The notes under the pieces are model-generated. The model saw only the letters and a program-made list of their open reading frames with translations, searched no databases and was not told the DNA's origin. The translations under genes were made by a program, and so were the position numbers. Positions 558 through 61,191 of a stretch of DNA of 64,000 bases are shown piece by piece (position 1 is the first letter of the stretch; every line of letters begins with the position of its first letter). The DNA comes from Buchnera aphidicola (Floraphis choui) (GTDB lineage Bacteria; Pseudomonadota; Gammaproteobacteria; Enterobacterales; Enterobacteriaceae), in contig CP140044.1 of NCBI GenBank assembly GCA_039830045.1, positions 150,452 through 214,451 of the forward strand, read 5' to 3'.

Positions 558-3373
558 TATAAGAATTTACGTATTTCACCTTGCCCCGTTATGTTAGAGA
601 TACATCTTTTACATAATTTCAATTTAGTATCAATATTTTTAATATTAGGAATAATATGCCAACATCGCATGCATTTTTCTCCGTTTATTTTTGTAACGTA
701 TATTTTAAGATATTTTATTGATTTGCTTTTTATAGCATAATTAGGTGCAGAAGAGTAATTTTTTATTTGGATTTCTGATGTTAAAAATAAAAATTTTAAT
801 TCATCTTGTAATAATTCTAATTTTTTTCGAATATTATTATTGACGTACAAAGTAATTGATGATTCTAAAGAATTTCCTAATTTTTGATTTTTTCTTATGT
901 CATCTAATATCTTATTTACTTCATTTCTAATAATTAATAGTTCATTCCAATATTGATTATTCATAATGTTATCATCATTTAAATAAAATAATTGATTGAA
1001 CCATTCTTCGGTAAATACAAATTCATTCTTTTTTCCTGGTATATAATTCCATAATTCATCTGCGGTAAATGATAAGATAGGGGTGATCCATTTTATTAAT
1101 GCATTTAAAATTAAGTATATAGCACTTTGACAACTTTTTCTTGAAATATGGTTAGGTTTTATTAAATATTGTCTATCTTTAATTATATCTAAATAGAAAG
1201 AACTCATTTCTATAGAACAAAAATACATTATATGTTTCATTACATCATGAAAATTATAATTATTATAACTATTAATTATTTTATTTTGAGTCTCTAGTGC
1301 TTTTCCTACTGCCCATTGATCTAGTATTATCATATTTTTAGAAGATACAATTTCATTTTTAGGATTAAAATCATATAAGTTTGCAAGAAGGAATCGAGCT
1401 GTATTTCGAATTTTTCTATAAATATCTGATGTTTGTTTAAGTATATTTTCAGAAATAGTAATTTCTTTGCAATAATCAGTAGATGCTACCCATAATCTTA
1501 ATATATCTGCGCCAAATTTTTTTATTATATCATTAGGATGAATGGCATTTCCAATAGATTTAGACATTTTTTTCCCATTTTTATCTACTGTAAATCCATG
1601 TGTTATTACTCCATGATATGGAGAAGTAGAATTAATAGCAGTAGATATGATAAGAGATGACATAAACCAGCCCCTATGTTGATCTGATCCTTCTATATAT
1701 ATATCAGAAATATCATTATGATTAAATTTTTTATTATAGATATTAGAGAGCATAATAGATCCAGATTCAAACCAAATATCTAAAATATCTGTTACTTTAG
1801 TGTATTCGTTTGATTCATTTCCTAATAGTAGCTTTTTATCTATATCAAACCATGCTTGAACTCCATTTTTTTTTACATCTTTTATAATGTTATTAATAAT
1901 AGAAAATAATTTTGGATGTAGTTTTCCTGTATTTTTATGGAAAAAAATAGGAATAGGAACTCCCCACGTTCTTTGTCTAGATATACACCAATCGGGGCGA
2001 TTAGATATCATATCAATCATTTTTTCTTTTCCCCATTTAGGCATCCACTTTACTCTTTGTATTTGTTCTATACAATTTTTTCTTAAATTTTTATGATTCA
2101 TATTGATAAACCATTGCTGAGTAGCTCTAGAAATAATTGGTGTTTTGTGTCTCCAACAATGCGGGTAGCTATGATTGATAGTTTCTGTTTTTATTAAAGA
2201 ATTATTTTTTTTTAATAGTTCAATAATAATTTTTGTGGATTTTAAGATATTTATTCCATTTAATTTAGAGTGAATACCTGTTATATAATTTCCATTTCTG
2301 TCAATAGTTTTAGTTGCATTAATCCCATATTTTTTACTAACATTGTAATCGTCATTTCCAAATTCTGGGGCTGTATGTACAGCTCCTGTTCCTAAATCTA
2401 GAGTTACGTGTTCTGATAAAATGACTGGAATATCAATATTTAAAAATGGATGAGTGAATTGTGTATGTTCAAGAAGTTCTCCGAGTATTGTATTCAAAAT
2501 ATTCCATTTTTGAATTTTAAATTTTCTCATAGTTTTTTGAACTAATTCTTTTGCTAGGATAAATACTTGGTTTTTTGTTTGAATGAGTTGATAATATAAA
2601 TTAGGATTTAGTGTAATTGCTTTACTTGCTGGTAAACTCCAAGGTGTAGTAGTCCAAATTAACAAGTTTACATCGTCATTTAAATTAGTAATATTGAATA
2701 TTTTTTTTATAATTTTTTTGTTGGAAGATTTAAATGTTACAAAAGTAGAAATAGATGATTTTAAGTGATATTCAATTTCTGCTTCAGCCAATGCTGAACA
2801 ACAGCTTATACACCAATTTATTGGTTTAAAATCTTTATAGACATAACCAAGTTTAATCATTTTAGTAAGAGTTGTCATGATATTTGCTTCGTTTTTAAAA
2901 TTCATTGTTAAATATGCATTATTCCAATCTCCTAATATTCCTAACCTAATAAATTCATTTTTTTGCTTGTTTACTTGATTATTAGCAAATTCTCTACATT
3001 GTTTCTGAAAAGATTGTAAAGTTTTATTTTTTTTGCTTTTTTTGTTTATTTTTTCAATTTTGTGTTCAATAGGCAATCCATGGCAATCCCAACAGGGAGT
3101 ATATGGGGCATCAAAACCTGACATGTTTTTTGATTTTATTATAATATCTTTTAAAATTTTATTTACTGCATGTCCAATATGGATATTTCCATTAGCATAT
3201 GGAGGTCCATCATGTAAAAAAAATTTCTTATTACTTTTTTTAGTTGTTCTAATTATTTCGTAAATGTTGTTTTTTATCCATTTTTTGAGAATTTCTGGTT
3301 CTTTTTTAGATAAGTTTCCTTTCATAGAAAAGTTAGTATTAGGTAAATTTAGAGTTGATTTGTAATCAGTCAT
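557..3373 (-). CDS. ileS: isoleucine--tRNA ligase
   Basis: 938-aa ORF with class I HIGH motif ([11 protein letters not shown]), KMSKS motif (GKKMSKS) and C-terminal CxxC...CxxC zinc knuckle. Colinear with E. coli IleS. Confidence 0.97.
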
Positions 3374-4344: not shown

Positions 4345-4555
4345 ATTAATAAATAATGAATTGTGGTATAGATTTTGTTAAAATTAGAGAAACAATGTTT
4401 TGAATTATTGATAATTTTTTGGTAATTATTTAGAATCATAATCTATTATGTCAAAATAATATATGAGATATAATAAATATATATTTTATTTTTTTATATT
4501 ATGTTTATAAATGAATTTTTAATTATTTATATAGGGCAATTTAGGAGTATATATT

Positions 4556-20262: not shown

Positions 20263-21801
20263 ATGTTACTGCCTATTTTTATTATGATTCCTTTTTTAGG
20301 TGGAATATGTTGTTGGTTCTTTGACCAATATAATGTCAAAATTTCTCATTATGTTGCTTTATTCTCAATGAGTATAGTACTTATTCTGTCTATTTCATTG
20401 TTATTTTATGATTTAACAGCTTACATTTCAAGTTTACACGCATCTTATTGGAACATTGAATATGAAATGTCTTGGATGCCGCAATTTGGAATTACATTTC
20501 ATTTAGCTGCCGATGGATTATCTATTTTAATGTTAGTTTTAACTAGTATTTTAGGAATAATATCTATATTTTGTGCATGGGACAAAATTAAAAATAAGAT
20601 CGGGTTTTTTTATTTAAATTTATTGTGGATTTTAAGTTTTTCTATGGGAATATTTCTTTCTGTAGATCTTTTTCTGTTTTTCTTTTTTTGGGAAATAGTA
20701 ATATTCCCGGCATATTTTTTAATGATATTGTGGGGATACAAAGTTGATGGTCAAAGTTTATGCTTGAAGAGATATACTGCTGCTAATAAGTTTTTTATGT
20801 ATTCTCAATGTTCTGGTTTAATTTTATTATTTTCAATATTAATTTTAGTATATTCTTGTTATACGTCTACTCATGTTTTAAGTTTTAGTTATGATGTATT
20901 ACATAATACTGATTTAAATTTTTTTTTAGAAACTTGTATTATGTTAGGTTTTTTTTTAGCATTTTCTATTAAAGTGCCTATTGTTCCATTTCATGGTTGG
21001 TTTTCAGATTTTCATACTTATTCACCTATTTTAGGTTCTTTAGATATTTCTGGAATTTTGTTAAAAACAGCTATCTATGGTTTATTGCGATTTAATATTG
21101 ATCTTTTTCCTCGTTCTTCAGCTATTTTTTCAAATTTTTTTATTTTTTTAGGAGTTGTTACTATATTTTATACTGCATTAGCTGCTTTTTCTCAAAAAGA
21201 TATTAAGCGTTTAATTGCTTATACATCTATATCTCATACAGGTTTTATATTGATTGCCATTTATAGTGCTAATCAAATAGCTTATCAAGGTATAATAATA
21301 CAAATTTTTTCTTATGCTTTGTCTACTTCTGCTTTATATTACCTTATAGGTCAATTATTTCAATATACTTATACTCGTGATATGACAAAAATGGGTGGAT
21401 TGTGGTCCAATATAAATTGGATACCAGGATTTTTTTTATTTTTTTCAGTAGCAAATTTAGGAATGCCAGGAACTGGAAATTTTGTTGGTGAATTTATGAT
21501 ATTATTAGGCGCATTTGATAGTAATACTTTGTTAATTAGTATTGTTTCCTTTTCTTTAATTATTTCAGCATTATGTTCTCTAATTATGGTACAAAAAACG
21601 TTTTTTGGTCCTATTACTAAACATAATAATGTCGTCGTTGTTAGGAATATTTCTTTTAGCGAGATTATTATATTAGTATTATTATTGTTAACGTTAATAC
21701 TGATTGGACTTTACCCAAGTATAATTTTAAATATATCAGAGCATCCATTAAATAATATTCGAACTATTTTTTCTAATTTTATTTTAACTACAAGGTTATA
21801 A
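20263..21801 (+). CDS. nuoM: NADH-quinone oxidoreductase subunit M
   Basis: 512-aa antiporter-like membrane ORF in the nuoM position (AFSIKVPIVPFHGW, KRLIAYTSISH). Confidence 0.93.
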   Translation: MLLPIFIMIPFLGGICCWFFDQYNVKISHYVALFSMSIVLILSISLLFYDLTAYISSLHASYWNIEYEMSWMPQFGITFHLAADGLSILMLVLTSILGIISIFCAWDKIKNKIGFFYLNLLWILSFSMGIFLSVDLFLFFFFWEIVIFPAYFLMILWGYKVDGQSLCLKRYTAANKFFMYSQCSGLILLFSILILVYSCYTSTHVLSFSYDVLHNTDLNFFLETCIMLGFFLAFSIKVPIVPFHGWFSDFHTYSPILGSLDISGILLKTAIYGLLRFNIDLFPRSSAIFSNFFIFLGVVTIFYTALAAFSQKDIKRLIAYTSISHTGFILIAIYSANQIAYQGIIIQIFSYALSTSALYYLIGQLFQYTYTRDMTKMGGLWSNINWIPGFFLFFSVANLGMPGTGNFVGEFMILLGAFDSNTLLISIVSFSLIISALCSLIMVQKTFFGPITKHNNVVVVRNISFSEIIILVLLLLTLILIGLYPSIILNISEHPLNNIRTIFSNFILTTRL

Positions 21802-26625: not shown

Positions 26626-27491
26626 TTAAAATAAATAATATGATTTCAATTGTCTATTTAATATTGAAGTATTAGTACTACTTGCAATAAATCCATAAAC
26701 GTTTTTAGGTAGTATTGAAAGAATTTTATTTGCATCTTGTTTTGAATGAAATTCAGAAAAAATACAAGATCCTGTTCCTGTTATACGAGAAGGTGCATAT
26801 TGAGACAACCATGCAATTAAATTATTTATTTTATAAAATTTTTGTTTTATAAGCTTTTCACAATCGTTTTTAAATGGATCCTTCAATAATGAATTAATAC
26901 ATTTTTTTGGAGAGTTTCTTATTAATTGTGGATGAGAAAAAATTTGTTTAGTAGAGATTTTAATTTTTGGATAAGTAATCAAGTACCATCGTTTTTTTGT
27001 TGTTATAGGATGTAGTATATTCCCTATACCCTCTGCTATTGATGTTTTTCCTATTATGAATAAAGGAATATCTGCTCCTAACTCTTTCCCGATGTTTATT
27101 AATTGTGAAGGTTTAAATTTTATATTCCATAATTCGTTTAATGTAAGTAAAATTGTTGCAGCATTAGATGATCCTCCTCCTAATCCTCCTCCTATTGGTA
27201 TATTTTTTTTTATATAAATGTTAGCTCCCAATTTTGATGAATAATTTTTTAAGCTTCGTGCTTTTTTTTTAGTAATTTTGCAGCATGAATAATTATATTT
27301 TGAGAATGAGGTATATGAGGTATATATGTTAATAAATTTATATTTCCACTATTATTTGGAGTTATATGTATTATATCTCCATAATTTAGTAATTGAAATA
27401 GTGTTTGAATATTATGATAACCATCAGAACGCATTTCTGTAATATTTAAAAAAAGATTGATTTTTGCTGGAGAAAACCAAATAGTTTGCAT
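26626..27491 (-). pseudogene. ispE: 4-diphosphocytidyl-2-C-methyl-D-erythritol kinase (IspE), reading frame broken at an A9 tract
   Basis: N-terminal ORF from ATG 27491 ([14 protein letters not shown]...) stops at 27249. The body (GANIYIKKNIPIGGGLGGGSSNAA... to stop 26626) lies in another frame. The frames meet at T9 on the + strand (27262-27270), and A10 would restore an IspE colinear with E. coli. It may still be functional through slippage. Confidence 0.9.
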
Positions 27492-28066
27492 TACTTTAAA
27501 ATCCACTTATTAATATATAAAATGATAGAATTCTATTCTTGTACTATTTTAATTAAATTTGGAAAAAATGGAATAGTTTTATTTTTATAATATAAATATG
27601 TAATGCTTCATAGTTTTTTATAAATATATTTCTATGTTCTTAGATAAGAATATTTTTTAAAAGTATATTTATGTATTTCGTCAGGTAACTTAGTAATCCA
27701 TTGGTTAAAATAGTTTAATGGTATAATTAAACCGGTTATTTTTAATAAAGTTATTTCTGGCTTTTTACTAATAGATAGTAACTTTTTGTTATCTATAACT
27801 TGAAGGGTATTTTCAATAATAATTTTGAATTATATTTGCCTAATGAGATCAATAAATATTATTGAATAGTGTTGGAGGGAAGATTGTTCAAAATAGCTGA
27901 AAATTTTAATTCGATTTGACAAAAATAATAAACAACTATTAATTTGAATATTATTTATTTTTTTGAGATCGTGTTGTTGATTATTCCATAAATAATTATT
28001 TTTTAATATTTTAGGTATTATAGAACAGGTATTATTTAATAAACTGAGTGTTATAATAAAAAATTT
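27491..28066 (-). pseudogene. lolB: outer-membrane lipoprotein receptor LolB, pseudogene
   Basis: One continuous minus-strand frame of 191 codons is colinear with E. coli LolB. Matches include lipobox-like LLNNTCS; LWNNQQHDLKKINNIQ vs QWRQHQQDVRNLNQYQ; ITGLIIPLNYFNQWI vs LTGMPIPLNSLRQWI; and terminal NKWILK* vs DNWIVK*. It is interrupted by in-frame TAA (27830-27832), TAG (27632-27634), TGA (27608-27610) and TAG (27533-27535). No start codon follows the upstream stop at 28067-28069. Confidence 0.85.
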
Positions 28067-32407: not shown

Positions 32408-33616
32408 ATGCCTAATTCGTTAGTATTAACGCTTAATTGCGGTAGTTCTTCTTTAAAGTTTTCTGTTATAGATCCAAAACAAAATGAAATAGTACTATCG
32501 GGAATAGTAAATCTTTTGTGTTCTTCTAATATAAGTATTTCGTGGAAAATTGGTATTAATAAATATAATAGTTTCTTAAGTAAGAAAACAAATTTTAAAG
32601 AAATTATTAAATTTATTTCAAATCATATTTTAAAAAATAATTTAAACATTTTTAATAATATTTCATGTATAGGACATCGTGTTGTTCATGGTGGATCGAA
32701 AATAAATAAATCAGTGATAATAGATCAAAGTATAATACAACATATTAAAAATGTTTCACTTTTTGCTCCTTTGCATAATCCTATAAATTTATTGGGTATA
32801 AAATCTTCTTTTGATGTTTTCCCTCATTTAAAAAAAAAAAATGTGGCTGTATTTGATACAGCATTTCATAGTACTATACCGAAAATATCTTATTTATATG
32901 CTATTCCTTATAGTTTTTATAAGAATCATGGAATTCGAAGATATGGAGCACATGGCATTAGTCATTTTTATGTAATGACTAGGACATCTAAAATCTTAAA
33001 AATTCCTACAAGACAATTAAATATTATTACTTGTCATTTAGGACATGGTGCGTCGATATCAGCTATTCGAAATGGTATATGTGTGGATACTTCAATGGGT
33101 TTAACACCATTAGAGGGATTAGTTATGGGTACTAGAAGTGGAGATATAGATCCTTCAATTATTTTTTTTATGTACAACGAATTAAAAATGAGTATGAAAG
33201 ATATTGAATATGTTTTGATGAAAAAATCTGGATTATTAGGATTAAATGGAATCAGTAGTGATTTTCGTTATTTAGAAAATAAATATGTTTCTGATAATAA
33301 TATAAAGTTGTCTATTGACATATTTTGTAATCGTTTGTCTAAATATATTAGCTCTTATACTGTATTGATGAAAGGAAAATTAGATGCTATTGTTTTTACC
33401 GGAGGAATCGGAGAAAACTCTTGCTTAATTAGGACTCTTACTGTTTCCAAATTATCTTTAATAAATTGTAGAGTTCATGAAAAGTTAAATGCGTTAATGA
33501 AATTAGGTAAGGAGGGCATTATTAGTACAAAACATAGTGTTTCTATATTAGTAATACCAACTAATGAAGAATTAGTAATAGCAAAAGAAGCAATATCGGT
33601 AATTCGTTGTTGTTAA
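32408..33616 (+). CDS. ackA: acetate kinase
   Basis: The ORF track starts at TTG 32369, but ATG 32408 (MPNSLVLTLNCGSSSLKF) matches E. coli (MSSKLVLVLNCGSSSLKF). Other matches: VAVFDTAFH, GIRRYGAHGISH, FTGGIGENS, IPTNEELVIA. A perfect TATAAT lies at 32372-32377. Confidence 0.95.
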   Translation: MPNSLVLTLNCGSSSLKFSVIDPKQNEIVLSGIVNLLCSSNISISWKIGINKYNSFLSKKTNFKEIIKFISNHILKNNLNIFNNISCIGHRVVHGGSKINKSVIIDQSIIQHIKNVSLFAPLHNPINLLGIKSSFDVFPHLKKKNVAVFDTAFHSTIPKISYLYAIPYSFYKNHGIRRYGAHGISHFYVMTRTSKILKIPTRQLNIITCHLGHGASISAIRNGICVDTSMGLTPLEGLVMGTRSGDIDPSIIFFMYNELKMSMKDIEYVLMKKSGLLGLNGISSDFRYLENKYVSDNNIKLSIDIFCNRLSKYISSYTVLMKGKLDAIVFTGGIGENSCLIRTLTVSKLSLINCRVHEKLNALMKLGKEGIISTKHSVSILVIPTNEELVIAKEAISVIRCC

Positions 33617-44611: not shown

Positions 44612-45292
44612 TTGGAATATCTTGATGAAAAATTGTATCATAAACTGGAAGGATGTGTTAGAACAAGAAAAAAAAAATTGTATTTTATTAACATTATTAA
44701 ATATCTTTCTAATGCTAGAAAAACTAAAGTAATTTATCCTCCCAAACACGAAGTGTTTAATGCTTTTGTATTAACAAAGTTTTTTGATATTAAAGTAGTT
44801 ATTATAGGTCAAGACCCGTATTTTAAAAAAGGTCAAGCGCATGGATTAGCATTTTCTGTTCGAAAAGGTATTAAAATTCCTCCCTCTTTGTTGAATATAC
44901 AAAAAGAATTGATTAGTGATATGAAATATAATGTTCTATTTAATCATGGTTGTCTTGAAAATTGGGCTAATCAGGGGGTATTTTTATTAAATTCTATTTT
45001 AACAGTAGAATCAGGTAAGCCTGGCTCTCATGCTAATTTAGGATGGGAGATTTTTACTAACCAAGTGATAAGAATTATCAATGAATATCATTCGGGAATT
45101 ATTTTTCTATTATGGGGGTCATATGCTAAAAAAAAGATAAAAGAGATCTGTATTCACAAACATCATGTTTTATTGGCATCGCATCCATCACCATTGTCAT
45201 ATTATCAAGGTTTTTTTGGATGCCGCCATTTTTCAAAAACGAATATTTTGTTAAAAAAACAACATAAAATTCCAATTAATTGGCTTTTATAA
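44612..45292 (+). CDS. ung: uracil-DNA glycosylase; conserved N-terminus is encoded in another frame upstream of an A10 tract
   Basis: The 226-aa ORF from TTG 44612 carries the Ung core (IGQDPY, GLAFSV, PPSL, LLNSILTV, HPSPLS). The first about 20 codons have no Ung similarity. ATG 44625 in the +1 frame encodes MKNCIINWKDVLEQEKK, matching E. coli ...[11 protein letters not shown]. The frames meet at A10 (44668-44677). Confidence 0.88.
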   Translation: MEYLDEKLYHKLEGCVRTRKKKLYFINIIKYLSNARKTKVIYPPKHEVFNAFVLTKFFDIKVVIIGQDPYFKKGQAHGLAFSVRKGIKIPPSLLNIQKELISDMKYNVLFNHGCLENWANQGVFLLNSILTVESGKPGSHANLGWEIFTNQVIRIINEYHSGIIFLLWGSYAKKKIKEICIHKHHVLLASHPSPLSYYQGFFGCRHFSKTNILLKKQHKIPINWLL

Positions 45293-46056: not shown

Positions 46057-46926
46057 GTGAAACAATATTTTCATTGCATTGGAATAGTAGGTTATCCTCG
46101 TCATTTTAGTGCATTATCTACACATAAAATTCTTTATCATTGGTTAAAAAAAAATTATCATGTTATTATTGAAGACAAAGTAGCAGGTCAGTTAGGTTTA
46201 AAAAATATTAATATTGATTCGCTATCCAATATAGGAAAACAATGTGACTTAGTAATAGTTGTGGGTGGTGATGGAAATATGTTATATACTGCTCGTATAT
46301 TATCTTCTTATAAAATAAAAATTATTGGCATTAATAGGGGAAAATTAGGTTTTCTAACCGATTTAAACCCTGATACTGCATTAAAACAGTTATTGTGTGT
46401 TTTGTCTGGAGAATATATTCAGGAAAATCGTTTTTTATTAGAAGTAAAAGTAGTTAAAAAAAATGGATTATTTTCAATAAGTAAAGCTATTAATGAAATA
46501 GTATTACATGCTGAACATGTAGCGCATATGATAGATTTTGAAGTATATATTAACGGTGATTTTGCTTTTTCTCAACGTTCAGATGGTTTAATTATTTCTA
46601 CTCCTACGGGATCAACTGGGTACTCACTTTCTGCTGGTGGTCCAATTTTAGTTACTTCATTAGAAGCTATTGTACTAGTTCCTATGTTTCCTCATACTTT
46701 ATCGTCTCGTCCTTTAGTTATTAATAGCACTAGTACAATTCATTTAAAATGTATGGAAACTACATCGAAATTAAAAATTAGTTGTGATAGTCAGATAATA
46801 TTGTCAGTAGATAAACATGATATAATTGTGGTTAAAAGAAGTAATGATTTTTTGTGTTTGATACATCCTAAAAATTATAGCTATTTTAAAATGTTAAGTT
46901 CTAAATTAAATTGGTCAAAAAAATAA
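46057..46926 (+). CDS. nadK: NAD kinase
   Basis: 289-aa ORF with a GTG start. Motifs [15 protein letters not shown] and [19 protein letters not shown]-terminus [10 protein letters not shown] matches E. coli LSTKLGWSKK. Confidence 0.95.
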
Positions 46927-51503: not shown

Positions 51504-52796
51504 TTATTTTTTTAATAAAAATTTTTTCAGTATTGAAAAGTTAGGGCGAATATTATAAGATAAAATTGGTAATTTGATTCGATTCGATAATTCTTCTGGT
51601 AAAGATAAAGTTATTTTTAATATTTTTTCTACAGTATTTTTAAATTTAGATGGATGCGCAGTACCTAGGAATAACCCAAATTCATCATCTTTCAATTGAG
51701 CTTTTAATAAATTATATGCTATTGCTGCATGTGGTTCAGAAATATAACCTTGTTGTTTTAGATCTTTTAAGCTTTCTTCTGTTGATTTGTCAGAGACACT
51801 ACCAAATCTTAGTTTGTTCAACGACCATTCTTTTCTTTTATATAATTCTTCTACTCTTGGCCAATTATTCGGTTGGCTGATGTCCATAGCATTAGAAATT
51901 GTTGATACAGTATTCTTAGGTAGCCATTTTCCTGTATTAAGAAATCTTGGAACTGTATCATTAGAATTAGTAGCAGCTATAAATGATTTTATAGGGAGTC
52001 CTAAGGATTTTGCTAGTAAGCCTGCAGTAATATTTCCAAAATTTCCACAAGGAATAGATATAACTAAATTTTTTTTTTGTTCATTAGTAATTAAAGAAAA
52101 AGCTTCGAAGTAATAGCATATTTGTGCAAATAATCTACTAATATTAATTGAATTAGCAGAGTTAAGTCCAATCAACTTTTTAAGTTCATAATCTTTAAAT
52201 GCTTGTTTAACTAGATTTTGGCATTCGTCAAAACTACCGTTAACTGAAATAGTTATTATATTTTCTCCTAATGTACAAAATAATTTTTCTTGTAATTCGC
52301 TAATTCTTCCTTTAGGATAAAGAATTATTACTCTAACGTTTTTCATATTATAAAATGCATGAGCTACTGCTGCTCCTGTGTCTCCTGACGTTGCTGTTAA
52401 AATTGTTATGGTTTCATTTTTATCATGATTTAGAAAAGAAATGACTTGAGCCATAAATCTTGCTCCAAAATCTTTAAAGGCAAGTGTAGGTCCATGAAAA
52501 AGTTCACAACAAGATATGTTTTGTGAAATTGGTATAATAATTGGTGTGGTACAAGAAAAGGCTGAATTAACTTGTTCTTCTAAATCAGAAGCGCAAATTT
52601 CATCTCCTATAATAGTAGATAATATTTTACTACTTCGTTTTAAAAAATTCATTTCTAACAATTCTAAAAGTTCTTCACGTGGAATTACTGGTAGTTCTTT
52701 TGGAAAAAATAAACCCTGTTTTTTTCCTAATCCTAATTTTACAGCTGTAGAAAAATTAATTTCTTCTTTTTTATCTTTTAGATTATAAAGTTTCAT
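51504..52796 (-). CDS. thrC: threonine synthase
   Basis: 430-aa ORF with the PLP-lysine motif FHGPTLAFKD and ATSGDTGAA. Colinear with E. coli ThrC. Confidence 0.95.
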   Translation of the reverse strand: MKLYNLKDKKEEINFSTAVKLGLGKKQGLFFPKELPVIPREELLELLEMNFLKRSSKILSTIIGDEICASDLEEQVNSAFSCTTPIIIPISQNISCCELFHGPTLAFKDFGARFMAQVISFLNHDKNETITILTATSGDTGAAVAHAFYNMKNVRVIILYPKGRISELQEKLFCTLGENIITISVNGSFDECQNLVKQAFKDYELKKLIGLNSANSINISRLFAQICYYFEAFSLITNEQKKNLVISIPCGNFGNITAGLLAKSLGLPIKSFIAATNSNDTVPRFLNTGKWLPKNTVSTISNAMDISQPNNWPRVEELYKRKEWSLNKLRFGSVSDKSTEESLKDLKQQGYISEPHAAIAYNLLKAQLKDDEFGLFLGTAHPSKFKNTVEKILKITLSLPEELSNRIKLPILSYNIRPNFSILKKFLLKK

Positions 52797-58962: not shown

Positions 58963-61191
58963 ATGTATAGAGTAAATATTAAATTTAACATGTCTTTTTT
59001 AGCAAAAACATCTTTTTTATTATGTTCTTTAATTATAATATATGGACTTTTTTTGTATTTTAAAATTAGTTTTTTTATAAATGGAAAAATCTGGGAATTT
59101 CCTATATCAATATATAGTCGAATAATTACTCTAGAGCCTGGAAATCGTTATACCAAAAAAGAAATGGTTTCTATATTAAAAGGACTTCGATATCAGTATG
59201 TATCTATTTTAAAAGCTCCTGGAGAATTTCATGTAGAAAAAAAAAATATAACATTAATAAGACGGCCTTTTAATTTTCCTAATGGAAGAGAAGGAAAAGT
59301 CTTTATTAAATTACATTTTAAAAATAGAATATTAACAAAGATTGAAAATTTATCTAATAATCGTAGTTTTGGTATATTACAATTAGATCCTCAATTAATT
59401 ACTATGCTTCATTCCCCGAATGGGGAGCAGAGGATTTTTTTGCCTATACGATATTATCCAAAAATATTAATTGATACATTGTTAGCTGTAGAAGATCAAC
59501 ATTTCTACAATCATGATGGAATAAATATTCATTCTATCATTCGTGCTTTTCTAACTAATGTCAGTGTTGGTTATACTGTTCAAGGTGGAAGTACTTTAAC
59601 TCAACAATTAGTAAAAAATTTGTTTTTAACTAATACTCGATCATTATGGAGGAAAGTAAATGAAATATATATGGCATTAATTATGGATTGGAAATATAGT
59701 AAAGATCGAATTTTAGAATTATATTTAAATGAAGTGTATTTGGGTCAAGATGGTAATAAGCAAATTCGAGGATTTCCGTTAGCTAGTTTATATTATTTTG
59801 GTCGCCCTATAAATGAATTAAGTCTCGACCAATATGCATTATTAGTAGGTATGATGAAAGGAGCTTCTTTATATAACCCATGGAATAACCCTATATCAGC
59901 GTTACATAGACGTAATGTAGTATTATATATGTTATTAAAGCATAATATTATTAATAATAATTTTTATAACTCTCTTTTATTAAAACCGTTAAATGTTCAA
60001 TTTCGAGGGAATGTTATTTCTTCTCAAACAGCGTTTATACAAATTGTTCAGAAAGAATTAAGAGAAAAATTAGGTGATAGAGTTAAATATTGGTCAGGAA
60101 TAAAAATTTTTACTACATTAGATCCAGTATCTCAATTTTCTGCAGAACATGCAGTTAAAAATATTATACCTTTGTTAAAAAAAGAAAGAAATCTTAAAGA
60201 TTTAGAAGCAGCTGTAGTTATTATAGATAGGTTTAGTGGAGAAATTCAAGGTATTTTAGGTAGTTCTAATCCTAAAGTATCAGGATATAATCGAGCAATT
60301 CAAGCGCGTCGTTCAATTGGTTCATTATCTAAACCCATAACATATTTAACTGCTTTATCTCAACCAGAAAAATTTAATTTGAATACTTGGATTGCAGATA
60401 AACCGGTTATTATAAAACTAATGAATGGAAAATTGTGGAAACCTCAAAATAATAATTTTAAATTTGTAAAAAAAGTGATGTTAATTGATGCTTTAGCATA
60501 TTCTATTAATATTCCTACAGTTAATTTAAGTATGCAGTTAGGATTAAAAAAATTGATAAGAACTTGGATAAAATTAGGTTTAAATTATAATCAAGTATTA
60601 GAAATTCCATCTATATCGTTAGGATCAATTAATTTAACTCCTATAGAAGTAGCTAGAGTTTTTCAAGTTATAGCTAGTGGAGGTAATAAATCACGCTTAT
60701 CTTCTATTCGTTCAGTAATTTCAGAAGATGGTGTGACATTATATAATAGTTTACCTCAATCAGAAAAAGTAACATCAATGCAAGCTGCATATTTGACTTT
60801 GTACGCAATGCAATCAGTAGTTAAATATGGTACAGCAAAACAATTAGGAACGTTATTTGAAGATGTTTATTTAGCAGGAAAAACGGGAACAACAAACAAT
60901 TTAGTTGATAGTTGGTTTGTTGGAATTGATGGAAAGCAAGTAGTTATTATTTGGATTGGAAGAGATAATAATAAATCTTCGAAGTTATATGGATCTTCTG
61001 GTGCAATGCAAGTTTATCGTAATTATTTAAAACTTCATAAACCTCAACCTTTGATTTTAACTCTTCCTACAAATGTTAATATGTTTAGTATTAACTTTCA
61101 AGGTAATATAGTATGTAATGGCAATTTTGATAATAAAATTTATCGTTATCTACCAATATGGAATAAAAATGAAGTAATTTATTGCAATTAA
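58963..61191 (+). CDS. mrcB: penicillin-binding protein 1B (glycosyltransferase/transpeptidase)
   Basis: Glycosyltransferase motif EDQHFYNHDG, transpeptidase SIGSLSKP and KTGTTNN. Colinear with E. coli MrcB but lacks the long charged N-tail and the C-terminal extension. The start is uncertain: TTG 58933, ATG 58963 (preceded by aaagg) or ATG 58990. Confidence 0.9.
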   Translation: MYRVNIKFNMSFLAKTSFLLCSLIIIYGLFLYFKISFFINGKIWEFPISIYSRIITLEPGNRYTKKEMVSILKGLRYQYVSILKAPGEFHVEKKNITLIRRPFNFPNGREGKVFIKLHFKNRILTKIENLSNNRSFGILQLDPQLITMLHSPNGEQRIFLPIRYYPKILIDTLLAVEDQHFYNHDGINIHSIIRAFLTNVSVGYTVQGGSTLTQQLVKNLFLTNTRSLWRKVNEIYMALIMDWKYSKDRILELYLNEVYLGQDGNKQIRGFPLASLYYFGRPINELSLDQYALLVGMMKGASLYNPWNNPISALHRRNVVLYMLLKHNIINNNFYNSLLLKPLNVQFRGNVISSQTAFIQIVQKELREKLGDRVKYWSGIKIFTTLDPVSQFSAEHAVKNIIPLLKKERNLKDLEAAVVIIDRFSGEIQGILGSSNPKVSGYNRAIQARRSIGSLSKPITYLTALSQPEKFNLNTWIADKPVIIKLMNGKLWKPQNNNFKFVKKVMLIDALAYSINIPTVNLSMQLGLKKLIRTWIKLGLNYNQVLEIPSISLGSINLTPIEVARVFQVIASGGNKSRLSSIRSVISEDGVTLYNSLPQSEKVTSMQAAYLTLYAMQSVVKYGTAKQLGTLFEDVYLAGKTGTTNNLVDSWFVGIDGKQVVIIWIGRDNNKSSKLYGSSGAMQVYRNYLKLHKPQPLILTLPTNVNMFSINFQGNIVCNGNFDNKIYRYLPIWNKNEVIYCN

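Follow-up and report, generated by a model that had tools for sequence, protein, structure and literature searches.

A clade-wide break in the 5' poly(A) tract of Buchnera ung and its probable compensation by slippage

The ung locus and its two reading frames

The window, by which we mean the whole 64,000-nucleotide stretch of DNA analyzed here, has a G+C content of 25.8% and contains the gene order gyrA, a DUF2076 gene, ahpC (minus strand), ung (plus strand), grpE (minus strand), and nadK (plus strand). The ung gene lies in two pieces in different frames. Its body extends from 44678 to 45292 on the plus strand (LYFINIIKYL ... PINWLL, followed by the TAA stop) and belongs to a frame that is open from 44594 in the list of open reading frames. 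The TTG at 44612 to 44614, which opens the mechanical 226-amino-acid ORF (44612 to 45292), is a surrogate start and probably not the functional one. The ancestral start and leader are located on the same strand at 44625 to 44667, in the frame +1 to that of the body. They comprise an ATG (44625 to 44627), a further 13 codons (MKNCIINWKDVLEQ), and the first base (G) of the GAA codon that follows. Leader and body frames meet at a tract of ten A's by direct count (44668 to 44677, plus strand), flanked by G and T, which is the candidate slippage site; the body continues one base back from the leader frame. Read as it stands, the frame of the ATG encodes MKNCIINWKDVLEQEKK and remains out of register until a TAA at 44730 to 44732, so that uncorrected expression from 44625 would yield a 35-amino-acid peptide. 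With an eleventh A, ung reads MKNCIINWKDVLEQEKKKLYFINIIKYL... The leader-frame codons at the tract are GAA AAA AAA AAT, containing the heptamer A_AAA_AAA, and an ancestral A11 tract codes for Glu-Lys-Lys-Lys at codons 15 to 18. A sequence-only reading had placed the TTG at 44612, the ATG at 44625, the A10 tract at 44668 to 44677, the TAA at 44730, and the ORF end at 45292, and all of these positions were borne out. A scan for promoters and terminators was uninformative, with 10 promoter-like sites, compared to 9.3 expected, and no terminator.

The identity of the gene product is clear. The 226-amino-acid ORF matched the Pfam family PF03167 (UDG) with an E value of about 5e-17 to 6e-17 and 62.6 bits, the cut-off being 24.3, and all catalytic residues of a family-1 uracil-DNA glycosylase are kept, namely, the water-activating GQDPY motif (Asp64 and Tyr66), Phe77, Asn123, His187, and the HPSPLS leucine loop. 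These columns are invariant in an alignment of 20 sequences and also align to the E. coli and Vibrio cholerae enzymes, so that the Ung core motifs claimed for the long ORF are indeed there. The body is colinear with solved Ung structures. Residues 6 to 221 of the A11-corrected product aligned with residues 5 to 221 of E. coli Ung (1lqg and 1eug) with an E value of 1e-76, and the junction is gapless (INWKDVLEQEKKKLYFINIIKYL); the match in sequence and spacing to the E. coli N-terminus that the sequence-only reading had given was thus right. Only the A11-corrected product is colinear with solved Ung over its full length, the N-terminal W-x-x-V-L helix included, and this N-terminal segment lies within the region that is colinear across all solved family-1 UDG structures. 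The leader itself aligns with E. coli Ung residues 5 to 18 and with the in-frame Buchnera relatives described below. Since it agrees at 14 of 17 positions with the uninterrupted N-terminus of the closest annotated relative, the Buchnera symbiont of Nurudea yanoniella (MKNYIINWKNVLEKEKK), this match is not due to chance.

The best matches of the corrected protein were Ung proteins of Buchnera aphidicola, with identities of 77% to that of the N. yanoniella symbiont, 73% to that of the Schlechtendalia chinensis symbiont, and 66% to that of strain Bp (Baizongia pistaciae). Judging from these matches, the window is part of a Buchnera genome allied to the symbionts of the Fordini (Rhus-gall aphids). 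A scan of genome contigs with the corrected protein gave no Buchnera locus, and exact-peptide patterns matched distant bacteria only.

Tract state, ancestry, and selection in related lineages

The tract was found to be G-A11-T and in frame in four related lineages represented by six assemblies: the Buchnera of N. yanoniella (L003; CP140036), SRR27216394 (L004), three assemblies of the S. chinensis type (L041 to L043), and strain Bp of B. pistaciae (L044; AE016826). Their N-termini are of the MKN.II.WK.VL..EKKK type. The sequence-only reading had noted that the two frames meet at the A10 and would be joined by one additional A, and had named as a refutation that relatives with an uninterrupted frame lack the N-terminus encoded by the leader. 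These relatives possess exactly A11 and the same MKN.IINWK.VL N-terminus. In contrast, two assemblies carry G-A10-T and are broken as in the window: SRR32023170 (L001; 141-kb contig) and SRR7796593 (L002; 74-kb contig). The ancestral ATG and leader are intact in both (MSNCIMNWKDVLKEEKK in L001 and MNNYIIDWKDVLEQEKK in L002). Two further Buchnera sequences are frameshifted at this tract, namely, those of Brevicoryne brassicae (L045; CP034882), in which an A10 at 3024 to 3033 needs +1 A like the window, and of Acyrthosiphon kondoi (L046; CP002645), in which A10-GA at 3016 to 3025 needs the opposite correction, -1. Both genes are annotated as ordinary uracil-DNA glycosylase, and in each the other frame still holds an intact ancestral leader (ATG...SWKDVLSQEKK). 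All five frameshifted lineages examined retain the ATG and the W-KDVL motif.

Gene calls at these loci start elsewhere. The L001 call uses a surrogate TTG within the leader (P0003, MERCIKRRKKK...), whereas that of L002 begins at residue ~55 (P0014), with the leader called as a separate 35-amino-acid gene. Ung clusters with a source naming Buchnera number 28, and 10 of them show a surrogate or truncated N-terminus at the tract (P0015, P0022, P0028, P0030, P0033, P0036, P0042, P0085, P0086, and P0118). Their N-termini are of the form MERC..RKKKYF or MFYLKKKKRYF or start 3' of the tract, and DNA confirms two cases (L045 and L046).

An error of assembly or sequencing would make ung an ordinary intact gene with a genomic A11. 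Consensus indel errors occur most often in homopolymers of at least 10 bases, and ispE in the same window likewise needs one additional A. However, the same A10 is present in the two independent assemblies L001 and L002, which derive from other sequencing runs and are the closest relatives of the window. Frameshifts at this tract have also been deposited for other Buchnera (L045 and L046), and a -1A in ung has been tabulated for strain 5A. Moreover, the other three runs of at least 10 bases in the window, A12 at 32830, T10 at 52069, and A10 at 59237, are all in frame within ORFs of 433, 442, and 774 amino acids, respectively, which argues that the assembly is free of a systematic undercount of long runs. 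Published Buchnera genomes of Rhus-gall aphids were obtained from Illumina 2x150 reads assembled with SPAdes (PMC11188193), a statement that applies to the published genomes of the group. Given this evidence from several assemblies, an error at the ung tract appears quite unlikely.

Long runs are found at other genes of the group as well. The window contains 23 A/T runs of at least 9 bases, of which 22 are inside ORFs of at least 80 amino acids; in 20 of these 22 it is the sense strand that carries the A's, as lysine codons, and the remaining two are T9 runs at 20919 and 20949 that share one ORF. A frame is broken only by the runs of ung and ispE. The ispE gene (26629 to 27506, minus strand) is split at 27262 to 27270, a run of T9 on the plus strand and A9 in the gene, where an N-terminal part (...AAKLLKKK) and a C-terminal part (ARSLKNY...GGGLGGGSSNAA...) in different frames meet; one extra A restores K-L-L-K-K-K-A-R-S-L. 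The second +1 A case that had been noted for this gene is thus real. Another hot spot in the group is the 5'-proximal tract of nadK, which is an in-frame A9 in the window (46146 to 46154; codons W-L-K-K-N-Y) and out of frame in three relatives, namely, L001 (A12, 4517 to 4528), L002 (A11 then G, 4391 to 4401), and L003 (A11, 4531 to 4541). There, nadK is called from a downstream start (261 to 262 versus 289 amino acids) or, in the case of N. yanoniella, is uncalled.

A neighbour-joining tree based on the proteins of five or six neighbouring genes (874 to 1079 ungapped columns) grouped the window, L001, and L002 as a clade with 93 to 94% bootstrap support, and all A11 lineages were placed outside. 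Pairwise protein distances within the A10 clade are 0.24 to 0.30 and thus at least as large as that between the Buchnera of B. brassicae and A. kondoi (0.24). Since the A10 is shared by three sequences that group as a clade, the simplest history would be a single old A11-to-A10 deletion in the clade ancestor that was kept throughout diversification. Three independent A11-to-A10 events are possible since poly(A) tracts mutate fast, but less parsimonious; were the three deletions separate and recent, the integrity of the ORF would say less.

The body of ung is still under purifying selection in the A10 clade. Over 201 codons, dN/dS values were 0.21 to 0.26 at a dS of 0.55 to 0.66, compared to 0.18 to 0.19 for in-frame pairs and 0.10 to 0.44 for neighbouring genes. 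The value for the A10 clade is slightly above that of in-frame pairs (~0.24 versus 0.18), which would fit some relaxed selection. In a neutral simulation with the base composition of this genome, an AT-rich body of 204 codons was still open in 1.5% of the replicates at 0.1 substitutions per site, in 0.13% at 0.2, and in none of 3000 at 0.3.

The leader appears to be under selection as well, being conserved like coding sequence. The 43 nt that begin with the ATG and lead up to the tract are gapless in six related lineages, and nucleotide identity within the A10 clade is 81 to 88%, compared to 73 to 83% for the body and to 51 to 60%, with 26 to 54 gap positions, for the 150 nt directly upstream. 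Identities and gap counts relative to intergenic DNA were used here since dN/dS of the leader was too noisy, with several pairs saturated or undefined. Differences from relatives fall at third positions of the ancestral frame in 5 of 8, 3 of 5, 5 of 8, and 6 of 11 cases, 14 codons being too few for significance. Conservation of a leader whose frame ends 35 codons on would be sensible only if it is translated and joined to the body.

These data also bear on the view that ung is a decaying pseudogene from which no functional Ung is made. Gene erosion in Buchnera usually begins with a homopolymer frameshift (PMC3164680), reduced endosymbionts have often lost uracil repair, and the slightly higher dN/dS mentioned above points in this direction. 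An eroding gene is expected to show several disabling mutations or a dN/dS near 1, whereas ung has one lesion and values of 0.21 to 0.26. That lesion is a single indel in an A run with both sides open, the catalytic residues are complete, the leader is conserved, and the body remains open and constrained across the clade at a dS of ~0.6, where neutral drift would close it. We therefore regard a decaying ung as very unlikely.

Expression across the tract

Two ways of expressing this gene had been offered by the sequence-only reading: use of the ancestral ATG with a +1 A correction, or a shift of translation to the upstream TTG. The comparative data support the former and disfavour the latter. 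With a start at TTG 44612 or TTG 44678, Ung would be made without frame correction and its first helix would be missing or replaced by unrelated residues. The body frame is indeed open from far enough upstream for the 226-amino-acid ORF to exist, and gene callers and public annotations choose such starts in many Buchnera (e.g., MERC..RKKK and MFYLKKKK). However, TTG 44612 lacks conservation: in both sisters, a stop closes the body frame within the leader, so this codon is an accident of one sequence, and L002 has no ATG, GTG, or TTG start in the body frame before residue ~55. No SD-like sequence precedes TTG 44612, the segment that would be replaced belongs to the colinear region of family-1 UDG structures noted above, and the conserved leader, with its ATG and W-KDVL in the ancestral frame, is left unexplained. 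It is thus hardly probable that a surrogate start is used. An exact look-up of the 226-amino-acid ORF gave no product on record with the TTG-start N-terminus, and a look-up of the window's GrpE likewise gave no exact match. Re-initiation at TTG 44678, directly 3' of the tract, was also weighed and dismissed, as the corresponding codon is TTA in L001 and TCA in L002.

The reading that we favour, and consider probable though well short of certain, is a real and long-lived homopolymer frameshift that is compensated by +1 A slippage of RNA polymerase, possibly helped by -1 ribosomal slippage. According to this proposal, the ancestral A11 lost one base in the common ancestor of the window and its two sister lineages, and the deletion was retained. 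Translation would begin at the ancestral ATG 44625. RNA polymerase would slip backward on the T10 template and add an eleventh A in a fraction of the transcripts, giving rise to full-length Ung, and a -1 slip of the ribosome on A_AAA_AAA, which would give the identical protein, may contribute. Uncorrected messages would yield only the 35-residue peptide, so that this allele would be a knock-down and not a knock-out.

That slippage is the source of the correction, and at what level, is suggested by the literature on Buchnera and Blochmannia. In frameshifted genes of both genera, 12 to 50% of the transcripts were reported to be corrected at long poly(A) runs, as summarized in PMC5009743, which cites Tamas et al. 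(2008, PNAS). A value of about 30% full-length transcripts from frameshifted genes is given in PMC3017870, together with the statement that certain frameshifts are shared across species and have not decayed. A genome-wide survey of transcription errors in Buchnera placed 151 of 157 insertions within homopolymers, exclusively A or T runs, with an exponential rise in frequency as the runs lengthen to 11 nt (PMC5574713). The same survey reported no error that restores a reading frame, which points the other way as far as rescue by slippage is concerned.

The correction might instead be made mainly by the ribosome, via a tandem -1 slip of two tRNA-Lys on A_AAA_AAA that leads to the same EKKKLYF protein. 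The leader frame contains a perfect X_XXY_YYZ heptamer, the shift required is -1, and in the window an SD-like GGAAGGA (44649 to 44655) is located 14 to 21 nt upstream of the tract. On the other hand, no stimulatory hairpin or pseudoknot was detected downstream, where 83 nt fold at -6.3 kcal/mol (z = -0.37) and 66 of 200 shuffles fold as well. The SD-like string corresponds to the W-K-D codons and is the weaker GGAAAGA in L001 and L002. In addition, the published heterogeneity at poly(A) frameshifts of endosymbionts was found at the transcript level (PMC3017870 and PMC5009743). Ribosomal slippage as the main source was consequently ranked second, given the lack of a downstream structure and the apparent lack of a conserved upstream stimulator, and is considered unlikely, though less so than an assembly error, a surrogate start, or a pseudogene. 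The spacing of the GGAAGGA recalls the dnaX stimulator, for which about 10 to 14 nt would be expected; with the conserved Trp-Lys-Asp codons and the GGAAAGA of the sisters, it is probably incidental.

The case matters for both annotation and biology. The start assigned to ung in this window, as in many deposited Buchnera genomes, is a surrogate one that masks a frameshift, so gene-content tables that score Ung as simply present or absent are inexact. A DNA-repair gene with clade-level persistence and constraint joins those endosymbiont genes that appear to depend on slippage. Ung removes the uracil that results from cytosine deamination, and a permanent knock-down could therefore feed the C-to-T pressure behind an AT-rich and homopolymer-rich genome; this link is speculative. 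A bolder proposal, which we consider unlikely, is that the 5' poly(A) tract of ung acts across Buchnera as a long-lived attenuator of uracil-repair dosage that recurs in the genus and is either tolerated or selected. It is based on the observations that roughly one in three of the named Buchnera Ung clusters has an N-terminus that is out of frame or truncated at the tract, that shifts of at least two opposite kinds are present, and that one allele persists throughout a clade. If Ung were held at slip-through levels in this manner, the tract would link the infidelity of the polymerase to C-to-T pressure and thereby to the AT bias that creates such tracts.

Relation to known systems

The phase-variable contingency loci of Neisseria and Haemophilus resemble ung in that a homopolymer near the 5' end of the gene sets the frame. 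In contrast to free switching, the state of the ung tract follows phylogeny, with an A10 clade and A11 relatives, and its host genome is that of a clonal, vertically inherited symbiont without evident use for on/off switching. Another system with a related element is dnaX of E. coli, where a lysine-codon slippery heptamer (A_AAA_AAG) with an upstream SD-like element and a downstream hairpin directs a -1 shift. The heptamer and the direction of the shift are alike in ung, whereas the downstream hairpin is missing and a conserved upstream stimulator is apparently missing as well. Furthermore, the shift in dnaX leads to a second, shorter product, whereas that in ung would restore the only functional one.

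The closest parallels are the poly(A) frameshifts with transcriptional slippage of Buchnera and Blochmannia (Tamas et al. 2008, PNAS), as summarized in PMC5009743 and PMC3017870. Like ung, these cases involve an obligate insect endosymbiont with an AT-rich genome and a gene that is intact except for a single-base indel in a run of about 10 A's on the sense strand, to be corrected by one extra A. A frameshift common to diverged lineages without further decay is another shared feature (for Blochmannia, references 15 and 16 of PMC3017870). Neither ung nor the clade allied to Rhus-gall-aphid symbionts is among the published examples found in these accounts. A further difference is that the break in ung, known here from DNA, lies only 14 codons from the start, which is why a surrogate start conceals it from annotation.

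The same genes, kind of lesion, and genus appear in Table S3 of Degnan, Ochman & Moran (2011; PMC3164680), which lists ung as "-1A (12A)" in Buchnera-Ap 5A and "-2T (4T)" in Sg, and ispE as "-1A (10A)" in Buchnera-Ak. Those events are single-strain cases scored as recent inactivations, whereas the lesion described here is clade-wide and accompanied by measurable purifying selection. Ung of Buchnera-Ak was scored as intact in that table, yet its N-terminus was found to be out of frame here (L046). Among the papers searched, none discusses an ung frameshift that is conserved across a clade of Buchnera. The phenomenon as such was already described for Buchnera and Blochmannia in 2008 to 2010, so ung and ispE are not new to it, and the known mechanism is left unchanged. 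What is added here is modest: a frameshift in ung that is shared by a whole clade, with constraint quantified on both sides of the break, and a clear case of a surrogate start that masks such a lesion from annotation.
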